From the IMG/VR virus record IMGVR_UViG_3300029722_000070, positions 1 to 6,005 of that record: a DNA stretch of 6,005 nucleotides. The stretch is one strand, 5' to 3'. This DNA comes from a virus. Taxonomy: Duplodnaviria > Heunggongvirae > Uroviricota > Caudoviricetes. A program made the translations under genes and the position numbers. Each line of letters starts with the position of its first letter. The first letter of the stretch is position 1. Under the pieces are notes generated by a model. The model did no database searches and had not been told where the DNA came from. It saw only the letters and a program-made list of their open reading frames with translations. Shown in pieces: positions 1 through 6,005 of the stretch.

Positions 1-213
1 CATTTGCGCTGTCACTTTCGGTACCGGTGACACCGGTTCACTTTCACCAGCCTGAATCAGCCACCACATCGAACCCTTGTTATCCGCTTCACCGCGGCGC
101 TTCAGTTTCCACAGTTCGTTGACCGCATCTTCACGGCTGATTCCAAGGCGGGCCGCCACTACCTGTGAAGAGGCTCTTTTCAGTGCTTTCAGTGCGTCAA
201 ATACGGTTTCCAT
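1..213 (-). CDS. Small hypothetical protein, possibly a winged-helix DNA-binding protein at the Ren position downstream of P; the 3' end runs off the left edge of the window
   Basis: ATG at 213-211 (complement) with GGAGGA 7 nt upstream (complement of 221-226). Reading frame is open to position 1. Translation begins METVFDALKALKRASSQVVAARLGISREDAVNELWKLKRRGEADNKGSMWWLIQ. It sits where ren lies in lambda, directly after the P-like gene. Not in the ORF track because no stop falls inside the window. Confidence 0.5.
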   Translation of the reverse strand, partial: METVFDALKALKRASSQVVAARLGISREDAVNELWKLKRRGEADNKGSMWWLIQAGESEPVSPVPKVTAQM

Positions 214-246
214 TAAAATTTCCTCCGACAAAATCGTTTCTCAGAT

Positions 247-909
247 TCAAATAAAACCAGCTGCCTTCCGGCGTTCGTATTCCTGTTTCAGCCGTTCAAT
301 TGGCGTTGGCCCTTGCGGGTGTTTCGCCCCTTCCAGTTGTCGTCGCACTGGCGGAACACTCATCCCGTTACCAACATGCTTTGCCCATTTCGTCAGTTGC
401 CGTTCCGCAAGTCGTTTTAACTCACCCTGCGTCATCTGGCGCTCAATCCCTCTGGTACGCATTTCGAGGCAGATGTGGTACAGCACAGGCTGTGGCCACG
501 GGTATTTATCACTCCCGTCGTATCGCCAGGATTCATTGCGCCAGCGCCGGTACTCTTCCATCACTGCATCCACCGTAAGACCAAATGGATTTGCCCCACT
601 CTCCGAAATCAGTGCAACAAACTCAGCCAGGTCCGGGGGCCACGTTTCACCCGCCCGGCAGCGGTCCATGCACTGACGGCAGACCAGCCGGATTTGCTGT
701 TCAGTCATCGTGCCAATCTGGGCAATCCATAGCTTCGAAGGTGCGGCCCCGTTCTTCTGTGTCCAGCGGTTCGAATACACCTCCCCCATAAGCTCCCACA
801 GCTTCCAGGCCGTTTCCGTTGCTGATAAATCCGTTGTCACGTTCCCACTGTTCGCGTGCTGCCCGGATTTCCTGAACTGCCCGTGATGCCGTGCCACCTG
901 ATGCTGCAT
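247..909 (-). CDS. Replication protein P-like (DnaB helicase loader, lambda P family)
   Basis: 220-aa ORF with AGGGGG Shine-Dalgarno about 7 nt upstream of the ATG at 909. From recalled sequence, the C-terminal half (YPWPQPVLYHICLEMRTRGIERQMTQGELKRLAERQLTKWAKHV) aligns with lambda P (YPWKSNAHYWLVTNLYQNMRANALTDAELRRKAADELVHMTARIN), and the central IGTMTEQQIRLVCRQ segment aligns with lambda P GITTMEQVNAGMRVAR. Position after an O-like gene fits. Confidence 0.78.
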   Translation of the reverse strand: MQHQVARHHGQFRKSGQHANSGNVTTDLSATETAWKLWELMGEVYSNRWTQKNGAAPSKLWIAQIGTMTEQQIRLVCRQCMDRCRAGETWPPDLAEFVALISESGANPFGLTVDAVMEEYRRWRNESWRYDGSDKYPWPQPVLYHICLEMRTRGIERQMTQGELKRLAERQLTKWAKHVGNGMSVPPVRRQLEGAKHPQGPTPIERLKQEYERRKAAGFI

Positions 910-1429
910 GGCTTACCCCCTTGCTGACTGGTTTTACCTGTGCCCTGACGTGCTGCACGTGGCGGGCAAATTTCTGCTCCCACTGAACCTGCGTGAAAAC
1001 CTTCCCCTCCGCCATCCAGTAATCCCGGAATGCGGCAAGCTCTGCAGGTGTAAATTCCGGCTCAGGCAGAGCCATACCCCACACTGCTGCCCGTTGTCGA
1101 AAATCCGACGACGGCTGCCAGACAGTAGTCATCAAAAATTTCCCGATCGGTTCGCTCAGGCCGTCCAGGTATTCAGGTTCGGCTGTCTGCAACGGCGCAC
1201 CATGCGACTCACCGGTTGGAGCACTCTCGCGCATGCGCGTGTTATGTGTGGGGTTTAATTCTGTATCTGTATCTTTATCTGTCGTGACTTGTCGTGACTT
1301 GTCGTGACAGATGCGTGACACGTCGTGACTCATCGTGACAATCAGCATCATATTTCCGCAGCTTTTCGCGCTCCCGCTGCGCTCTCTTGCGCTCTGCCGG
1401 GGATTTTGCCGTTTGCGAAACGTTACCAT
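701..1429 (-). CDS. O-like replication initiator, C-terminal portion; in a different frame from the N-terminal ORF, so probably a frameshifted gene or pseudogene
   Basis: 242-aa ORF. The first 60 or so residues are low-complexity and read through the repeat array, but from about residue 80 the sequence looks protein-like (FLMTTVWQPSSDFRQRAAVWGMALPEPEFTPAELAAFRDYWMAEGKVFTQVQWEQKFARHV). No convincing ribosome-binding site of its own. It overlaps ORF 1275-1754 by 155 nt and overlaps the P start by 209 nt in another frame. Confidence 0.4.
   Translation of the reverse strand: MVTFRKRQNPRQSARERSGSAKSCGNMMLIVTMSHDVSRICHDKSRQVTTDKDTDTELNPTHNTRMRESAPTGESHGAPLQTAEPEYLDGLSEPIGKFLMTTVWQPSSDFRQRAAVWGMALPEPEFTPAELAAFRDYWMAEGKVFTQVQWEQKFARHVQHVRAQVKPVSKGVSHAASGGTASRAVQEIRAAREQWERDNGFISNGNGLEAVGAYGGGVFEPLDTEERGRTFEAMDCPDWHDD
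1260..1283. repeat. Four tandem hexamers (TCTGTA TCTGTA TCTTTA TCTGTC), AT-rich, abutting repeat array A
   Basis: Read directly from the sequence at 1260-1283, preceded by TTTAATT. An AT-rich tract next to iterons is the usual layout for a DNA unwinding element. Confidence 0.5.
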
Positions 1430-1748
1430 TGTCCTCTTTCAGCACCTGACGTTTTTCCCATCCGGAAATAAGGTCACCATCCAGAACCCGCCCCTGCATT
1501 GCATGCAAAATTGAATCAATTACGTCTTCCGTCACATCAAGCGCACTTGCTAAATCTTCCGTCGTGACATCAATGTGACCACGTAGTGACACGCCGTGAC
1601 ATGTCGTGACATTTCGTGACGCACTCACCAGAAGGTGGATATACACCGCCATCACTGTTGCGATTGGCTGTCCTGAGACCCTGGCAATGGTTCGCCATTT
1701 GGGATCATTTGGCATGTCATGCCACAATCTGAGCCAGGCATTAGCCAT
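1275..1748 (-). CDS. O-like replication initiator, N-terminal (putative origin-binding) portion
   Basis: ORF track gives 1275-1754 from a GTG; the in-frame ATG at 1748-1746 has a GAGGTG Shine-Dalgarno just upstream and is preferred. It lies between the CII-position gene and the P-like gene, as O does in lambda. Both repeat arrays fall inside it. It ends at a stop inside repeat array A. Confidence 0.6.
   Translation of the reverse strand: MANAWLRLWHDMPNDPKWRTIARVSGQPIATVMAVYIHLLVSASRNVTTCHGVSLRGHIDVTTEDLASALDVTEDVIDSILHAMQGRVLDGDLISGWEKRQVLKEDNGNVSQTAKSPAERKRAQREREKLRKYDADCHDESRRVTHLSRQVTTSHDR
1284..1339. repeat. Iteron-like array A: six GTGAC cores (consensus TCGTGAC) phased at 10-11 bp
   Basis: GTGAC begins at 1284, 1294, 1304, 1315, 1325 and 1335 (spacings 10, 10, 11, 10, 10). 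The first three units are exact copies of GTCGTGACTT. Helical-turn phasing inside an initiator gene suggests initiator binding sites (ori). Confidence 0.7.
1564..1620. repeat. Iteron-like array B: six GTGAC cores phased at 10-11 bp
   Basis: GTGAC begins at 1564, 1575, 1586, 1596, 1606 and 1616 (spacings 11, 11, 10, 10, 10). Same core and phasing as array A, about 280 bp away, within the N-terminal coding part of the O-like gene. Confidence 0.7.
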
Positions 1749-1816
1749 ACTCACCTCATCTGATACCGAACTTTACCCTCGAACATCCGGAAGAAATCCG
1801 GCATGAATATTGTTGG

Positions 1817-2242
1817 TCAATGCACGACAACAGCATTACCAGGCTGACCACCACTGTTAGTCAGGGTGCCCCAGGCGATCGCCGCTGCGACAAAATCATC
1901 CACATCTTTCACCAGCCGATCCCTCCGTTCGACGATCTCACGGTAATATTCAGAGCTGTGACTGCGCATACGGGCCACCAGCAGAGGCGGCATTGCCTTT
2001 TCGATCGCCGGTAACAGAGCCTGAATTTTTTCAACAGCATCAGGGGTGTCTTTATCCAGCCAACGGAAAATTTTCTGGGTATTACGAGCCAGGGCTTCCG
2101 GATGGCTGTCGTCGTACAGTTCCGGGAACGTCATTCCCAGCTCGAAATACGCTTTGGTAATTTTCGCAGCCGGTACTTTTTCGCCGTCCGGATGCGCCCA
2201 GACATTCATCGCCATGCGGATATGTTCATGTTTGATTTTCAT
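1817..2242 (-). CDS. YdaT-like protein at the CII position
   Basis: 141-aa ORF whose ATG (2242-2240) overlaps the stop of the upstream cro-like gene (2239-2241) by 3 nt, which suggests translational coupling. It occupies the slot between cro and the replication genes. The MKIKHEHI N-terminus and length match my recollection of the YdaT family; this is from memory, not a search. Confidence 0.65.
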   Translation of the reverse strand: MKIKHEHIRMAMNVWAHPDGEKVPAAKITKAYFELGMTFPELYDDSHPEALARNTQKIFRWLDKDTPDAVEKIQALLPAIEKAMPPLLVARMRSHSSEYYREIVERRDRLVKDVDDFVAAAIAWGTLTNSGGQPGNAVVVH

Positions 2243-2454
2243 GAATCATTCTTTCCTTCGTTCGAGGTGCTATCCTGCTTCTTGTAAAGTTCTGGGTTGT
2301 ATTTCAATTCACCGTTAGTAATTTCATCCAGTTCCATTGCGCGAAGTTTGGGAATAACTGCTTTCCACCGCACAACAGCCACATGTGAAATTCCAAGAGC
2401 CTCAGCTACTAGTCGCTTTTTTTTGAAATAGCGCAGAACATCATCTTTGAACAT
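2239..2454 (-). CDS. cro: Cro-like HTH regulator (P22 Cro / YdaS family)
   Basis: 71-aa ORF with AGGAGAG Shine-Dalgarno 5-6 nt upstream of the ATG at 2454. The sequence MFKDDVLRYFKKKRLVAEALGISHVAVVRWKAVIPKLRAMELDEITNGELKYNPELY aligns along its length with P22 Cro as I recall it (MYKKDVIDHFGTQRAVAKALGISDAAVSQWKEVIPEKDAYRLEIVTAGALKYQ). It is divergent from the repressor gene. Confidence 0.85.
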   Translation of the reverse strand: MFKDDVLRYFKKKRLVAEALGISHVAVVRWKAVIPKLRAMELDEITNGELKYNPELYKKQDSTSNEGKNDS

Positions 2455-2483
2455 AAAACTCTCCTGTTATTTCGAGCAGAAGG

Positions 2484-2497
2484 GTAACAATAGTTAC
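2484..2497. promoter_or_regulatory. Candidate operator O1 (GTAAC-AATA-GTTAC)
   Basis: 14-bp site with perfect 5-bp inverted-repeat arms, read directly from the sequence. Confidence 0.55.
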
Positions 2498-2531
2498 ATA
2501 ACAATGTCAACCATAGCAACATCACTTGGTA

Positions 2532-2545
2532 GTAACATTGGTTAC
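2532..2545. promoter_or_regulatory. Candidate operator O2 (GTAAC-ATTG-GTTAC), abutting the repressor start codon
   Basis: Same arms and spacer length as O1, centred 48 bp from it, ending one base before the ATG at 2546. Confidence 0.55.
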
Positions 2546-3220
2546 ATGAAAAACACTATCAGCGAACGTATTCGGAATCGTCGAAAAGACGTTGGATTAA
2601 CCCAACAGCAGGTTGCGAAAGCAATCGGCATATCTCGTGTATCCGTAACAAAATGGGAAAATGGCTCTTCAAAACCTGACGGTGAGAATTTGTATCTACT
2701 GTCAAAATTGCTTTCCAAATCTCCTGAATGGATTCTTTATGGAAAGGACTGTCACGATAAAACCGATGATCTGCGTCTGAATCAGTACCCTTACATTAGT
2801 GACAACATCGCCCGGTTGCCCGTTTTAACGTGGGAACAGGCTGGTTATTGGGATATGAGTTGTCCAGTAACCAAGATTCCTGGTATTAAGAACTGGGTTG
2901 ATGTCATGACAAAAACCGCTGAAAACTCTTTTTTATTGCATGTTGAGGGAGATGCGATGACAAACTCTAACGGCCTCCCAACCATCCCCGACGGATCTAC
3001 CGTGCTGATTACACCATGCTCAAGTAACATTAGAGAACTGGTGGGAAAAATAATCTTAATCCAATTGGAAGGAACGCCAAACGTAACACTAAAAAAAGTT
3101 GCGATTGACGGACCAAACATCTATTTGTTGTCACTGAATCCGCTTTACAAACCCATCGAACTGAATGGTGGTTACACCATTAAAGGTAAAGTTTCACAAA
3201 TACATCAATACTTAGACTGA
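2546..3220 (+). CDS. cI: CI/C2-type immunity repressor (N-terminal HTH, C-terminal LexA-like S24 domain) with Ala at the nucleophile position
   Basis: ORF track gives 2447-3220. I chose the ATG at 2546 because MKNTISERIRNRRKDVGLTQQQVAKAIGISRVSVTKWENGSSKPDGENLYLLSKLLSKSPEWILYGKD aligns from residue 1 with the P22 C2 N-terminus as recalled (MNTQLMGERIRARRKKLKIRQAALGKMVGVSNVAISQWERSETEPNGENLLALSKALQCSPDYLLKGD), and because it leaves both operators intergenic. The C-terminal domain aligns with lambda CI and P22 C2: SFLLHVEGDAMT against SFWLDVQGDSMT, and VTLKKVA against ATFKKLV. No obvious Shine-Dalgarno, which fits a leaderless transcript as for lambda cI. Confidence 0.9.
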   Translation: MKNTISERIRNRRKDVGLTQQQVAKAIGISRVSVTKWENGSSKPDGENLYLLSKLLSKSPEWILYGKDCHDKTDDLRLNQYPYISDNIARLPVLTWEQAGYWDMSCPVTKIPGIKNWVDVMTKTAENSFLLHVEGDAMTNSNGLPTIPDGSTVLITPCSSNIRELVGKIILIQLEGTPNVTLKKVAIDGPNIYLLSLNPLYKPIELNGGYTIKGKVSQIHQYLD

Positions 3221-3225
3221 GTCAG

Positions 3226-3251
3226 AACCCGCATTCATTGCGGGTTTTTTA
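3226..3251 (+). terminator. Rho-independent terminator downstream of the repressor gene
   Basis: Stem AACCCGCA (3226-3233) and TGCGGGTT (3239-3246) with loop TTCAT, followed by TTTT (3247-3250). Begins 6 nt after the repressor stop codon. Confidence 0.75.
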
Positions 3252-3294
3252 TGCCCTCAAATGTACCTTTTGTAACATTGCATTGACTCGAAAG

Positions 3295-3308
3295 GTAACT
3301 CTTGTTAC
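3295..3308. promoter_or_regulatory. Candidate operator O3 (GTAAC-TCTT-GTTAC), OL-like, with a possible rightward early promoter
   Basis: Third copy of the GTAAC-N4-GTTAC palindrome, flanked as GGTAAC...GTTACC. A GTAAC half-site lies at 3272-3276 and a TTGACT hexamer at 3284-3289. It sits after the repressor terminator and upstream of the rightward small gene at 3490, the position OL/PL occupies relative to cI in lambda. Confidence 0.5.
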
Positions 3309-3489
3309 CCTAACAACATACCAACCCACCCCGCCCCACAGAACGCCGGGCAATACTGCGAGTTACCAGGCAGTGGTCAGGGGTTAAGTAGCCAGCCCGA
3401 GGCGTAAGAACATGACGGCAGGGTTCAACTTTAACTATGCAGCAGGTTTTTGTTCCGCTCCCCCGGCGTTAAGGGGAAATGAGGTCAGC

Positions 3490-3642
3490 ATGGATACTAT
3501 CGAGCTTGGCAACAGCGAATCTCTGGTATGCGGCGTGTTTCCCAACCAGGACGGCACGTTTACCGCGATGACGTATACCAGAAGCAAAACGTTTAAAACG
3601 GAAGCTGGCGCGCGTCGCTGGTTAGCAAGAAACTCTGACTGA
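3490..3642 (+). CDS. Small hypothetical protein, YdaF-like (DUF1391-type prophage protein)
   Basis: GAGG at 3481-3484, 5 nt before the ATG at 3490. 50-aa product MDTIELGNSESLVCGVFPNQDGTFTAMTYTRSKTFKTEAGARRWLARNSD. The ORF track starts the same frame at 3412 (76 aa); I prefer the shorter form for its ribosome-binding site and its resemblance to the roughly 50-aa Rac YdaF as I recall it. First gene right of the OL-like operator. Confidence 0.6.
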   Translation: MDTIELGNSESLVCGVFPNQDGTFTAMTYTRSKTFKTEAGARRWLARNSD

Positions 3643-3740
3643 TGAAGGTTAGTAATTAAAGAGTTCTCCACAGGCGAAGTGGAATACGTTCGCCGGACAC
3701 GGGTAAGCATTCGGCATGCTCTTTAACAATCTGGGTATTC

Positions 3741-4187
3741 CTAACCACAAAGGAATCGCATCAATTTGGATTTTGCAGACAGTTTCTCTTGTTGTTCTAC
3801 GGAGATTCCTATTTTGATCTGGGTTTTTAAGATTGCGATATCTTTAAGCGACGACCAAATATTATCATCTGTTTTTTCCAGGAGCTTTAACTGCATTTTC
3901 AATTCCGAATCGGAATATTTTTCTGCATCATCATAAAGCTGCAGATATTCTGCGGATTTTCTCATTGCGTTACCTGACTTTTGTCCGAATCCGTAAATCG
4001 TTTGAACGGTTGCTATCACAACAATGAGAACTCCAGAAACTTCAGGAATAAATCCACCAATGACAGATGAACCGAGGATAATACTCACCACTGAGAAAAG
4101 TTTATCGAGACGACCAGTCGCTACAGAGAATAGTTGTTCAAGAAAATAACCATATAAAACCCTGTCAAGAATATCATCCCGGTCCAT
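3741..4187 (-). CDS. Small membrane protein with two predicted transmembrane helices; candidate superinfection-exclusion protein (SieB-like)
   Basis: 148-aa ORF with AGGTGA 7 nt upstream of the ATG at 4187. Two adjacent hydrophobic segments (LFSVVSIILGSSVIGGFI and VSGVLIVVIATVQTIYGF) followed by a charged, helix-prone C-terminus. It is oriented against its neighbours, as sieB is in the Rac prophage. No competing ORF on the other strand. Confidence 0.6.
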   Translation of the reverse strand: MDRDDILDRVLYGYFLEQLFSVATGRLDKLFSVVSIILGSSVIGGFIPEVSGVLIVVIATVQTIYGFGQKSGNAMRKSAEYLQLYDDAEKYSDSELKMQLKLLEKTDDNIWSSLKDIAILKTQIKIGISVEQQEKLSAKSKLMRFLCG

Positions 4188-4246
4188 ATATCATCACCTG
4201 CTTGTTTGATTGTTGCTGTTCCCCCTCTCCTCTGAAGGAGCTGGAG

Positions 4247-4435
4247 ATGGTTTTGGTCGAATGTTTTTCTCAGGTATATGTTTCCTGGTATTCGGAATGT
4301 CCGCCCTGTCCGCAGGCTTACCAGTACCTGAACAATTCTTTTGAACCACCATATAAAACACCTTCCTGTTGTTGGGGATATCCAGATTATACAGATTTCC
4401 TGTTATTGGGGAATGACGGAAACCACCTCGCCTGA
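4247..4435 (+). CDS. Candidate small cysteine- and aromatic-rich protein (62 aa); uncertain
   Basis: GAAGGAG Shine-Dalgarno (4234-4240) 6 nt before the ATG at 4247. Product MVLVECFSQVYVSWYSECPPCPQAYQYLNNSFEPPYKTPSCCWGYPDYTDFLLLGNDGNHLA has 6 Cys in 62 residues. The ORF track lists the same frame from 4202. No homolog recognised and codon usage looks atypical, so it may be spurious. Confidence 0.2.
   Translation: MVLVECFSQVYVSWYSECPPCPQAYQYLNNSFEPPYKTPSCCWGYPDYTDFLLLGNDGNHLA
4363..4412. repeat. Pair of 16-bp direct repeats TTCCTGTTRTTGGGGA
   Basis: Copies at 4363-4378 (TTCCTGTTGTTGGGGA) and 4397-4412 (TTCCTGTTATTGGGGA), one mismatch, start-to-start spacing 34 bp. They fall in different frames of the 4247 ORF, so this is a DNA-level repeat rather than a peptide repeat. 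Confidence 0.5.
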
Positions 4436-4665
4436 CGTGGTTAAAAGCAGGCACACAACACGAAAGCGCACGGCGAGATTCCTTTGCATATAAGGCTTGT
4501 CGTTAAATTTCTTCGACCGTGCACTTCCGGTTGTGGCAGTCCGCGAAATGGCGCGGCGGTAAGTATGGCTGGGGCTTCCTCCATTGCTCCAGAAAATGCA
4601 CCGGGTCGTCAGGTTGACCATACGCTTAAGTGACAGCCCCGCCACAATACCCATGCGTAGTCTTT

Positions 4666-4709
4666 GGTGGCATCAGTTCTACTCCGTGACTGCTCTGCCA
4701 CCCTTTTTA
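4666..4709 (+). terminator. Candidate intrinsic terminator or RNA 3' hairpin
   Basis: GGTGGCA (4666-4672) pairs with TGCCACC (4696-4702), with an inner CAGT/ACTG pairing, followed by CTTTTT (4703-4708). The loop is long (23 nt), so the call is weak. Confidence 0.3.
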
Positions 4710-4814
4710 AAGTGAATTTTGTGATGCGGTGAATGCGGCTATGCGCACGCGGAACAGTTAAAACCGTAAAGTGGTCTTTTACGGGGCGTAACGGGCATCC
4801 TTCTGTATTCCGGC

Positions 4815-4854
4815 GTTAATTGTTAACTGGTTAACGTCACCTGGAGGCACCAGG
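4815..4854. promoter_or_regulatory. Cluster of GTTAA(C) motifs plus a short hairpin upstream of the 4891 gene; candidate regulatory site
   Basis: GTTAATTGTTAACTGGTTAAC at 4815-4835, with inverted arms TTAAC (4823-4827) and GTTAA (4830-4834). Hairpin CCTGG-AGGCA-CCAGG at 4840-4854. Lies 35-75 bp upstream of the ATG at 4891. Confidence 0.3.
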
Positions 4855-4890
4855 CACTGCATCACAAAATTCATTGTTGAGGACGCGATA

Positions 4891-5079
4891 ATGGAAACGT
4901 TATTACCAAACGTTAATACGTCTGAAGGTTGTTTTGATATTGGAGTTCTGCTCAGTAACCGGGAGTTTACTGAAGATGCCATTAAGATGAGAAAATATGA
5001 ACCTTATCTTCTCAATGATAATTCCATACTTTCCAGAATTGCCCTTCTTGAACTTGGTATTATCGGAGAACAGCAGTGA
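4891..5079 (+). CDS. Small hypothetical protein (62 aa), early-operon gene
   Basis: GAGG at 4879-4882, 8 nt before the ATG. Product METLLPNVNTSEGCFDIGVLLSNREFTEDAIKMRKYEPYLLNDNSILSRIALLELGIIGEQQ. No homolog recognised. Confidence 0.5.
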   Translation: METLLPNVNTSEGCFDIGVLLSNREFTEDAIKMRKYEPYLLNDNSILSRIALLELGIIGEQQ

Positions 5080-5096
5080 CTTCAGCATTTGCACTG

Positions 5097-5240
5097 ATGA
5101 TGACCGTTTTTCTTATAACGGGCGAGCCACAGACTGTGATTACCGGAATTTTTGCCAGTAAAGAATCCCGCCTCCAGGCAAGAGACAAGCAAAAAATTTC
5201 TGGTGAATGCCTCCCGTTAAAAAAGTATCGCTGTACCTGA
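5097..5240 (+). CDS. Candidate small protein (47 aa from the ATG at 5097, or 54 aa from the GTG at 5076), possibly Kil-like
   Basis: The GTG at 5076-5078 overlaps the TGA stop of the preceding gene (5077-5079, GTGA overlap), suggesting translational coupling. Product MMTVFLITGEPQTVITGIFASKESRLQARDKQKISGECLPLKKYRCT has a hydrophobic N-terminus and a basic C-terminus. Absent from the ORF track, presumably for length. The Kil comparison rests only on size and position. Confidence 0.3.
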   Translation: MMTVFLITGEPQTVITGIFASKESRLQARDKQKISGECLPLKKYRCT

Positions 5241-5357
5241 ATAACGAAACACCGGCTGGATAACCCGCCAGCCATATTAACACCATACCAACGGATTAAA
5301 AATGCCAGCAATGGCAGGGATTCGTTCACCCTGAAATCTGTCATGAGGTTAAAACAA

Positions 5358-6005
5358 ATGAGTAAAGTCTTTATTTGCGCCGCTATTCCTGACGAACTGG
5401 CAACAAGGGAAGAAGGCGCTGTGGCTGTAGCCACAGCCATTGAAGCTGGCGACGAACGCCGTGCTCGAGCAAAATTTCACTGGCAGTTCCTGGAACATTA
5501 TCCGGCTGCTCAGGACTGCGCTTATAAATTTATTGTCTGCGAGGATAAACCTGGCATACCCCGCCCTGCCCTCGATTCATGGGATGCTGAATATATGCAG
5601 GAAAACCGCTGGGATGAGGAGTCTGCTTCTTTTGTCCCGGTTGAGACTGAATCCGATCCGATGAACGTCACTTTTGACAAGCTGGCCCCTGAAGTACAGA
5701 ACGCTGTCATGGTTAAGTTCGACACATGTGAAAACATCACCGTTGATATGGTTATTAGCGCACAGGAATTGTTGCAGGAAGACATGGCAACATTCGACGG
5801 ACATATCGTTGAAGCGTTGATGAAAATGCCAGAAGTTAACGCCATGTATCCGGAGCTTAAGTTGCACGCCATTGGGTGGGTTAAGCATAAATGTATTCCT
5901 GGTGCTAAATGGCCCGAAATTCAGGCAGAGATGCGCATCTGGAAAAAACGTCGCGAAGGTGAACGCAAGGAAACCGGAAAATACACGTCTGTTGTTGATC
6001 TCGCC
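5358..6005 (+). CDS. Hypothetical acidic protein, 5' partial view (at least 216 aa, continues past the window)
   Basis: GAGG at 5345-5348, 9 nt before the ATG at 5358. Frame is open through 6005. Product begins MSKVFICAAIPDELATREEGAVAVATAIEAGDERRARAKFHWQFLEHYPAAQDCAYKFIVCEDKPGIPRPALDSWDAEYMQENRWDEE. Not in the ORF track because it has no in-window stop. The listed ORFs 5440-5664, 5522-5872 and 5577-5888 overlap it in other frames and look spurious. Confidence 0.7.
   Translation, partial: MSKVFICAAIPDELATREEGAVAVATAIEAGDERRARAKFHWQFLEHYPAAQDCAYKFIVCEDKPGIPRPALDSWDAEYMQENRWDEESASFVPVETESDPMNVTFDKLAPEVQNAVMVKFDTCENITVDMVISAQELLQEDMATFDGHIVEALMKMPEVNAMYPELKLHAIGWVKHKCIPGAKWPEIQAEMRIWKKRREGERKETGKYTSVVDLA

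Follow-up and report, generated by a model that had tools for sequence, protein, structure and literature searches.

DicF, a small RNA (sRNA), and the dicBF operon of Qin, a cryptic prophage of Escherichia coli K-12, reportedly go back to Faubladier in 1990. The operon has the gene order ydfA ... dicF, dicB, a ydfD-like gene and an exonuclease gene, with ydfB and ydfC placed between ydfA and dicF. In K-12, DicF is cut from a polycistronic transcript that starts at the promoter dicBp (no internal promoter was found) and either stops at the dicF terminator after 1146 nucleotides (nt) or reads through to 1608 nt; the 5′ end of a 190-nt DicF species is made by RNase III, and a 53-nt form by RNase E (PMC10448788). 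RNase III acting on the read-through RNA also gives a 72-nt DicF, and within the sRNA it is the 3′ region that pairs with ftsZ as well as pykA, xylR being the partner of the 5′ end (PMC5069750). The same gene order occurs in the DNA analysed here, a 6,005-nt stretch of a Caudoviricetes genome (positions 1 to 6,005 of IMG/VR virus record IMGVR_UViG_3300029722_000070), which is referred to in full as the window. Its segment 4188–4890 very probably combines two units on opposite strands: a DicF module with the leader of dicB on the plus strand, and the promoter and small upstream gene of a cargo cassette on the minus strand.

The right two-thirds of this segment (4443–4890, plus strand) is the known DicF precursor and dicB leader, merely unannotated in these genomes. 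The features that define it are:

4652–4709, plus strand: DicF sRNA (Rfam RF00039 match at 4652–4703 plus the U-run)
4891–5079, plus strand: dicB, a cell-division inhibitor gene (Pfam PF05358, E = 3.7e-38; called dicB in identical records by the Prokaryotic Genome Annotation Pipeline, PGAP)
3490–3642, plus strand: ydfA homologue (DUF1391; Pfam PF07151, E = 1.5e-27; 90% DNA identity to the K-12 ydfA region), the first gene of a dicBF-type operon

The RF00039 match covers the full model (1–52) and scores 58.9 bits (gathering score 48; E = 2.2e-11). Its terminator stem (4666–4676/4690–4702) is followed by UUUUU, as in a Rho-independent terminator, and carries a compensatory change with respect to K-12 (GGCGG/CCGCC to GGTGG/CCACC), with one base different in the loop and 3′ arm. 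The genomic setting is also that of a dicBF-type operon, with dicB starting 182 nt downstream of DicF and ydfA lying upstream; by blastn, 4443–6005 is collinear with the K-12 Qin operon from upstream of dicF through dicB and ydfD (84% identity), and the K-12 annotation places the dicF non-coding RNA (ncRNA) at the position homologous to that of the window DicF. Sequence membership and synteny, as well as the conserved structures and the conserved open reading frame (ORF) described below, are established in this analysis. An earlier sequence-only reading had seen in the segment about 700 bp without a convincing gene, which holds for protein genes on the plus strand only, given the presence of an ncRNA gene at the Rfam threshold; its suggestion that the region may encode a small RNA was correct, the hairpin followed by CTTTTT that it had placed at 4666–4709 being the DicF terminator (hairpin 4666–4702, then CCCTTTTT).

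DicF is embedded between folded RNA elements, two of which, the stem that closes the dicB leader and the core, had escaped the earlier reading:

4455–4534, plus strand: P0, a long imperfect stem (4455–4478 with 4512–4534) of the minimum free energy fold
4530–4648, plus strand: conserved folded RNA core of about 120 nt, between P0 and DicF
4713–4873, plus strand: dicB leader domain, closed by a 19-nt stem (4713–4731/4855–4873; an inverted repeat, I1, that is 95% complementary)

The processing enzymes and targets of DicF are carried over from the K-12 experiments. The 3′ strand of P0 sits where the 190-nt species would begin, around 4525 (190 nt upstream of the K-12 DicF 3′ end), and by analogy P0 is a probable RNase III substrate whose cleavage near that position would create the 5′ end of long DicF. 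On the other side of the sRNA, the 19-nt stem begins 4 nt past the U-run and ends 17 nt before the dicB start, enclosing a GTTAAC hairpin (~4811–4838) and a CCTGG/CCAGG hairpin (4840–4854); the K-12 dicB leader folds in the same way. Because the stem starts 4 nt past the U-run, the RNase III cut about 19 nt beyond the terminator that gives the 72-nt DicF would be expected to fall in its 5′ arm, which fits the K-12 data. The GTTAAC cluster singled out in the earlier reading is real insofar as two sites (4822 and 4830) lie inside hairpins; their number is not above chance (3 in the window against 1.56 expected, a count reached by 39 of 200 shuffles), and the sites matter as hairpin arms. The spacer between dicF and dicB (4701–4923) also aligns end-to-end with STnc100 (RF02076), including the outer stem and the CCUGGAGGCACCAGG hairpin; with 32.4 bits in the window, 34.4 in K-12 and 28–42 in related loci against a gathering score of 47, membership of that family was rejected.

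The core between P0 and DicF is nearly invariant among loci that differ elsewhere, and its variable patches coincide with hairpin loops, the stems being kept. Copies were gathered by scanning genome and viral collections for short invariant patterns, giving more than 100 distinct copies; 33 and 19 unrelated GC-rich chance matches that pattern scans with CAGGTTGACCATGCGC and GCGGCGGTAAGCATGG had drawn in as well were excluded. Covariation across these homologous prophages, a check that the earlier reading had proposed, supports five helices and a pseudoknot:

4530–4537/4641–4648, plus strand: helix P1
4541–4545/4552–4556, plus strand: helix P2
4557–4560/4600–4603, plus strand: helix P3
within 4569–4592, plus strand: helix P4
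4604–4611/4631–4638, plus strand: helix P5
4563–4568 with 4618–4623, plus strand: pseudoknot, GUAUGG with CCAUAC

In 93 distinct sequences, 96% of cells pair in these elements, as compared with 30–54% when the partners are slid, and double-sided changes occur in 10 pairs (none of 500 shuffles reaches the observed values). A pseudoknot pair reads UA in 72 of these sequences, CG in another 15 and UG in the remaining 6, none being mismatched; when the C variant served as the anchor of a scan that did not constrain the loop, 15 of 15 true cores had the compensating G. The resulting GCAUGG/CCAUGC pairing arose in independent events, in cores of the phage P1 type and in one DicF-type core (L221), and not one C·A mismatch occurs among 104 distinct cores. 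For the third hairpin, the pairing proposed by RNAalifold was dropped in favour of an 8-bp GGTTGTCA/TGACAACC stem because it is there that Izhakiella, Citrobacter and P1 show compensatory changes. No Rfam family (Rfam 15) matches 4530–4648 at E values up to 1.

The core is part of the known 190-nt precursor, and its conserved fold and wider distribution appear to be undescribed in the literature searched. In Citrobacter, Izhakiella and many viral contigs, the terminator hairpin that comes after it keeps the same base and has a wholly different loop; such alternative-loop variants score below threshold with the Rfam DicF model, which does not detect the Citrobacter type. In Citrobacter braakii the core is flanked by a LexA-type repressor gene and by xis-int, and in phage P1 it is found in the leader of the C1-controlled ban operon, with a small terminator of its own. 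In two loci (L023 of Izhakiella, 2500–2594, and L061, 1359–1440) the post-core terminator hairpin is enlarged and its loop reads AGGAGG followed by ATG or GTG, looking as if the start of a tiny ORF were sequestered in the hairpin. It is conceivable, and we put it forward only tentatively, that the core represents an unrecognised autonomous RNA family of lambdoid, Citrobacter/Izhakiella-type and P1-like phages: a leader of repressor-controlled early operons, always placed before an intrinsic terminator with a swappable loop "payload" of which DicF would be one, that either controls read-through in the manner of put or matures and stabilises phage sRNAs.

DicF itself varies in ways that bear on its targets, which were compared between the window allele and K-12 as arm-restricted duplex energies against shuffles; a full-length sRNA–target duplexfold was discarded, shuffled sequences having scored equally. 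The ftsZ-pairing region is identical to that of K-12 but for 1 nt, and the duplex of the DicF 3′ region with the ftsZ leader has an energy of −19.1 in the window and −19.4 in K-12. The K-12 5′ arm forms a 10-nt perfect run with xylR (−20.3 kcal/mol, reached by 0.2% of shuffles), whereas the window arm has lost this match and gives −11.4, the shuffle mean. We infer from these sequences that the window allele would still target ftsZ but not xylR; retention of ftsZ control is deduced from the near-identity to K-12 of the published pairing region. Pairing with xylR is an allele-specific target rather than a family-defining trait and, because the ftsZ arm is kept and the xylR arm lost, prophage copies of DicF would not be functionally interchangeable.

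Other DicF-like elements were encountered in the survey. A recurrent class (L002, 3452–3508; L014, L038, L053, L117 and L125) combines a K-12-like 5′ arm, UUUUCUGGUGA, with a short terminator hairpin, GGCGGAAAUGGAUAUCCGCC, that has no ftsZ-pairing loop, and is missed by the Rfam DicF model. Aeromonas phage AP1 (254 kb; MT713136.1, 249928–249974, hit H95) has 47 nt that are 89% identical to window positions 4663–4709, a DicF-terminator-like hairpin without the upstream core. In several related prophages, IsrK and C4 antisense RNA occur as pairs, above the Rfam thresholds, near the DicF-like element:

L012, 2044–2232: IsrK/C4 pair
L020, 1630–1815: IsrK/C4 pair
L087, 1171–1359: IsrK/C4 pair
L103, 6924–7981: two IsrK/C4 pairs

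The left third of the segment (4188–4442, minus strand) is the probable promoter and the small dispensable gene of a two-gene cargo cassette, inserted in antisense orientation into the early-left operon:

3741–4187, minus strand: cargo gene, an ORF for a 148-amino-acid protein (hypothetical protein in PGAP)
4352 to 4194, minus strand: small conserved gene of 52 codons plus stop (MVVQKN...HIPEKNIRPKPSPAPSEERGNSNNQTSR), with a Shine-Dalgarno (SD) sequence, GGAAGGTG, at 4366–4359
4363–4412, minus strand: candidate cargo promoter module, with repeat A (TCCCCAATAACAGGAA, 4412 to 4397), −10 element TATAAT (4391 to 4386) and repeat B (TCCCCAACAACAGGAA, 4378 to 4363)

The 52-codon ORF stops 6 nt before the cargo ATG (4187) and is kept upstream of cargo homologues of 58–65% identity, in five sequence versions that all have an SD; its invariant H-x-PEK-x-x-R core is written with different codons (CGA, CGT, AGA or AGG for Arg; CAT or CAC for His). 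The assertion that minus-strand ORFs here lack ribosome-binding sites therefore fails, GGAAGGTG preceding the ATG at 4352. In loci L169, L177, L179 and L183 the ORF is deleted between two CAAGCAGGTG repeats, which leaves the promoter adjoining the cargo gene (a 12-codon stub overlapping the cargo start out of frame also remains); since some loci have lost the ORF, the cargo gene does not require it, and the ORF is best described as a real but dispensable accessory gene. The cargo protein has a hydrophobic stretch at about residues 29–68 and matches PHROG 6315, a family of function not known (E = 6e-24); Pfam, NCBIfam and PADLOC searches returned no match, and an AlphaFold model with a mean predicted local distance difference test score of 50.8 was too uncertain for use.

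The 16-bp direct repeats noticed earlier are present at 4363–4378 and 4397–4412, identical at 15 of 16 positions, and share a CCCCAAYAACA motif on either side of the TATAAT. The layout of repeat A, TATAAT, repeat B, SD and start codon precedes four unrelated cargo genes and recurs in Salmonella and other diverged loci, and it is on this account that the repeats appear to be a conserved promoter-flanking feature and that 4363–4412 would act as a promoter. The two parts of the left third differ in their distribution: 4188–4361 is limited to 85 genomes that carry the full stretch, and 4367–4442 occurs in about 1250 genomes, directly upstream of differing minus-strand genes (for a 171-amino-acid hypothetical protein or a member of the ECs1072 family). 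In one locus (L009, strain 2013C-4830), a 9-bp tandem duplication, CAGATTATA, at the equivalent of ~4383–4391 doubles the minus-strand TATAAT. Upstream of the promoter, 4420–4452 holds a small conserved element (plus strand, CCACCTCGCCTGACGTGGTTAAAAGCAGGCA) with a CCAC/GTGG stem that covaries to CTAC/GTAG in Salmonella locus L011; GCCTG and CAGGC could form a crossing second stem.

Two further plus-strand elements are located upstream of the segment:

3283–3311, plus strand: probable PL-like early-left promoter, equivalent to K-12 dicBp (TTGACT, 17 nt, TACCCT; by direct reading)
3717–3729, plus strand: boxA, TGCTCTTTAACAA (exact match; 0.13 expected even with 2 mismatches allowed)

The probable PL-like promoter overlaps an operator-like palindrome, GGTAACTCTTGTTACC (3294–3309), and operators of the GGTAAC-N4-GTTACC type are found both in the divergent cro/cI region (2470–2545, with the half-sites at 2480–2545 between the cro-like and cI-like genes) and around this promoter (3270–3311). 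A consensus promoter scan of 3200–5100 called none, so that both promoters proposed here come from manual reading and conservation; the PL-like one was missed because its −10 element is weak. The boxA, which follows the gamma-proteobacterial consensus GYTCTTTAANA (PMC5725501), lies 75 nt past the ydfA stop, near the beginning of some 1.25 kb of plus-strand RNA that is not translated (3643–4890), and is preceded by a small hairpin, AGCAT-TCGGC-ATGCT (3705–3721). In 38 fetched loci the 13-mer is found again, 702–845 nt upstream of the core, and a cargo gene occupies the slot in all five boxA loci inspected (the window, L002, L006, L008 and L012); K-12 is without it, and Izhakiella has CGCTCTTTAACAA. 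Nus-factor binding at boxA could plausibly protect the long untranslated transcript from Rho. For 4188–4890 itself, the regulatory or antitermination role considered in the earlier reading may also apply, given that the conserved core precedes an intrinsic terminator in every case.

Taken together, these elements suggest the following course of events. On loss of the DicA-like, LexA-type repressor, transcription from the PL-like promoter would pass through ydfA and boxA, cross the inserted cargo gene in antisense and enter the structured RNA, where RNase III would cut P0 at ~4525 to release a species of about 185–190 nt consisting of the pseudoknotted core and DicF. Further 5′ trimming, performed by RNase E in K-12, would give short DicF. 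Its 3′ end would be formed at the intrinsic terminator (4666–4708) or, in read-through transcripts, by RNase III within the 4713–4731/4855–4873 stem, an event that would also free the dicB mRNA. The DicF 3′ region would then repress ftsZ translation, the xylR-pairing 5′ arm being lost in the window allele. The cassette, for its part, fills a slot that holds other cargo genes in other prophages and is presumably active in the lysogen from its own promoter.

Several observations weigh against the combined interpretation of the segment as DicF/dicB module plus cargo control region. PGAP leaves 4188–4890 blank in identical records; the window DicF allele is missing the AU-rich ~17 nt that hold the K-12 DicF 5′ end; and its ftsZ duplex energies are matched by 9–15% of shuffles. 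On the minus strand, a clean deletion has removed the 52-codon ORF from 4 of 15 distinct upstream sequences, and the cargo promoter has a poor −35 element and was missed by the consensus scan. The activity of the promoters, a function for boxA and the position of the mature DicF 5′ end in the window allele are inferences rather than observations.

Alternative explanations of the segment start from what might be expected at this position. Lambdoid phages often carry N downstream of PL and K-12 has ydfB and ydfC between ydfA and dicF, where the window is without them; the segment might thus be the decayed remnant of a gene normally located here, as had been suggested for an N-type antiterminator. 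Neither such a remnant nor ydfB or ydfC was recognised in 4188–4890 by blastn similarity or Pfam; an alignment check for an intact gene normally sited here, by sensitive blastn, returned no ydfB/ydfC similarity anywhere in 3715–4442, a stretch with no K-12 counterpart, and no ORF of the segment matches any family. Nor is the sequence decaying, being near-invariant across copies with covarying helices and a conserved ORF, and K-12 itself has 340 nt of non-coding DNA upstream of dicF, homologous to 4443–4651, all of which makes a remnant scarcely credible. On the same strand as the early operon, an open 62-codon frame invites translation:

4247–4435, plus strand: Cys-rich ORF of 62 codons with an AAGGAG/GGAG SD, judged not to be a gene

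Its length and its good SD are as previously described, with 5 Cys instead of the 6 that had been counted. It is nevertheless highly improbable that the early operon makes a real small protein from it. The frame is broken by stops in all three diverged loci (L011, L012 and L013), where the opposite-strand ORF stays open with its conserved motif; Pfam, PHROG and further family searches gave no homologues or family matches; among E. coli copies, two of the three substitution events are non-synonymous; and its 3′ third overlaps the promoter module, which is found in loci without the remaining ORF. (E. coli copies of 4188–4442 held too few substitutions for a coding test, and diverged cargo homologues were used instead.) The Cys-rich ORF is therefore judged to be a shadow, on the antisense strand, of the 52-codon gene with its promoter.

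For the plus-strand RNA, conservation of 4443–4890 could in principle reflect recent horizontal spread of one module without selection on RNA structure, given that many copies are 80–100% identical and that lambdoid prophages are mosaic. This is very unlikely in view of the 10 pairs with compensatory double changes, including the independent GCAUGG/CCAUGC events, the absence of C·A mismatches among the 104 distinct cores, and the confinement of variable patches to hairpin loops with the stems retained. An explanation that deserves more weight, yet is itself rather unlikely, takes the core as a cis-acting leader RNA that controls termination or read-through at the following hairpin, like put of HK022, with DicF as the elaboration of one lineage. 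It would account for the presence of a covarying core and pseudoknot in three unrelated contexts (lambdoid dicBF operons, the Citrobacter prophage between repressor and xis-int, and the P1 ban-operon leader), each downstream of a repressor-controlled promoter and directly before an intrinsic terminator, with needed genes beyond, and for the terminated (1146-nt) and read-through (1608-nt) transcripts made by K-12 (PMC10448788). Against this, inspection by eye revealed no antiterminator pairing of the helix P1 3′ strand with the terminator 5′ arm that covaries consistently; a role in processing or stability suffices to explain RNase III/RNase E processing and the stable 190-nt species; and the likeness to put is positional only.

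The genes around the segment belong to a lambdoid (Qin/Rac-like) E. coli prophage, integrated beside ompW, and make up its immunity and early region; strain EC2 (NZ_CP058571) carries a copy 100% identical to the window. On the plus strand, the order is repressor, ydfA, the 4188–4890 region, dicB, a DUF1482 gene and exonuclease; the minus strand holds replication genes, including an O-like gene that bears iterons, followed by a YdaT-family gene and a DicC-like cro. Two clusters of iteron-like repeats (GTCGTGAC / CGTGACA; 1275–1345 and 1555–1625, minus strand) lie inside the O-like gene, which has a DnaT-like domain, as expected for a lambdoid origin. The repressor (2504–3220, plus strand) joins a DicA-like helix-turn-helix to a LexA-type S24 peptidase domain and, because of this combination, is probably SOS-cleavable, unlike K-12 DicA. 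An Rfam Trp_leader match at 3160–3253 is the terminator of the repressor gene only, and an ARAGORN search for tRNA-like elements gave none.

In summary, a conspicuous "gap" in a prophage early operon can be explained as a DicF/dicB module, which annotation pipelines such as PGAP leave blank, together with an antisense cargo control region. DicF, its processing context and the leader of dicB are already known, and the cargo promoter and small gene are ordinary prophage biology, neatly organised; the covarying pseudoknotted core common to P1 and Citrobacter-type prophages could be the one item worth further work. It is a domain outside Rfam and suggests that there is a wider family of phage leader RNAs in which the terminator-loop payload can be exchanged. 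The boxA and repeat-flanked promoter that frame the cargo slot offer a recognisable signature for finding morons in such prophages.

Compared with the systems described so far, the window has in common with K-12 Qin a terminator hairpin preceded by the stem and core and followed by the long stem around the dicB leader, as well as the 3′ region that pairs with ftsZ in K-12, in which 1 nt differs. It differs in having the antisense cargo cassette and boxA where Qin carries ydfB and ydfC, in a DicF 5′ arm that lacks ~17 nt and the xylR complementarity, and in the LexA-type S24 domain of its repressor, which is absent from K-12 DicA (PMC10448788). Phage P1, whose GenBank entry AF234173 already labels a "dicF-like region" (68472–68573), shares helices P2–P5 and the pseudoknot, placed just after a repressor-controlled promoter and before an intrinsic terminator; it is without the DicF seed loop, having a small terminator hairpin only, its closing stem (helix P1) is of different sequence, and its downstream genes are tRNAs, tciA and ban instead of dicB. 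The counterpart of STnc100, a prophage sRNA family related to PasD (bioRxiv 10.64898/2026.05.13.724894), is in the window the 5′ leader of dicB rather than a stand-alone sRNA gene. As regards antitermination, the window resembles rrn-type, Nus-factor boxA systems in its perfect consensus match near the start of a transcript that is long, untranslated and structured, the site lying upstream of 4188–4890 and being absent from K-12 Qin; of a lambda-type N/nut system it shows neither an N-like ORF nor a family match, and its sole boxA, of rrn type, is preceded, not followed, by a hairpin. The closest parallel to the cargo cassette is sieB of lambda and Rac, a moron or superinfection-exclusion gene lying antisense in the lambdoid early-left operon. 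Although Pfam, PHROG and family searches revealed no sequence similarity of the cargo to SieB or any defence family, it likewise appears to be an independently promoted gene for a small membrane protein on the opposite strand of the PL operon, in a slot whose cargo changes from prophage to prophage; what distinguishes it from sieB-type morons is a promoter with a conserved direct-repeat pair and an optional small upstream gene for a basic, Pro-rich product.

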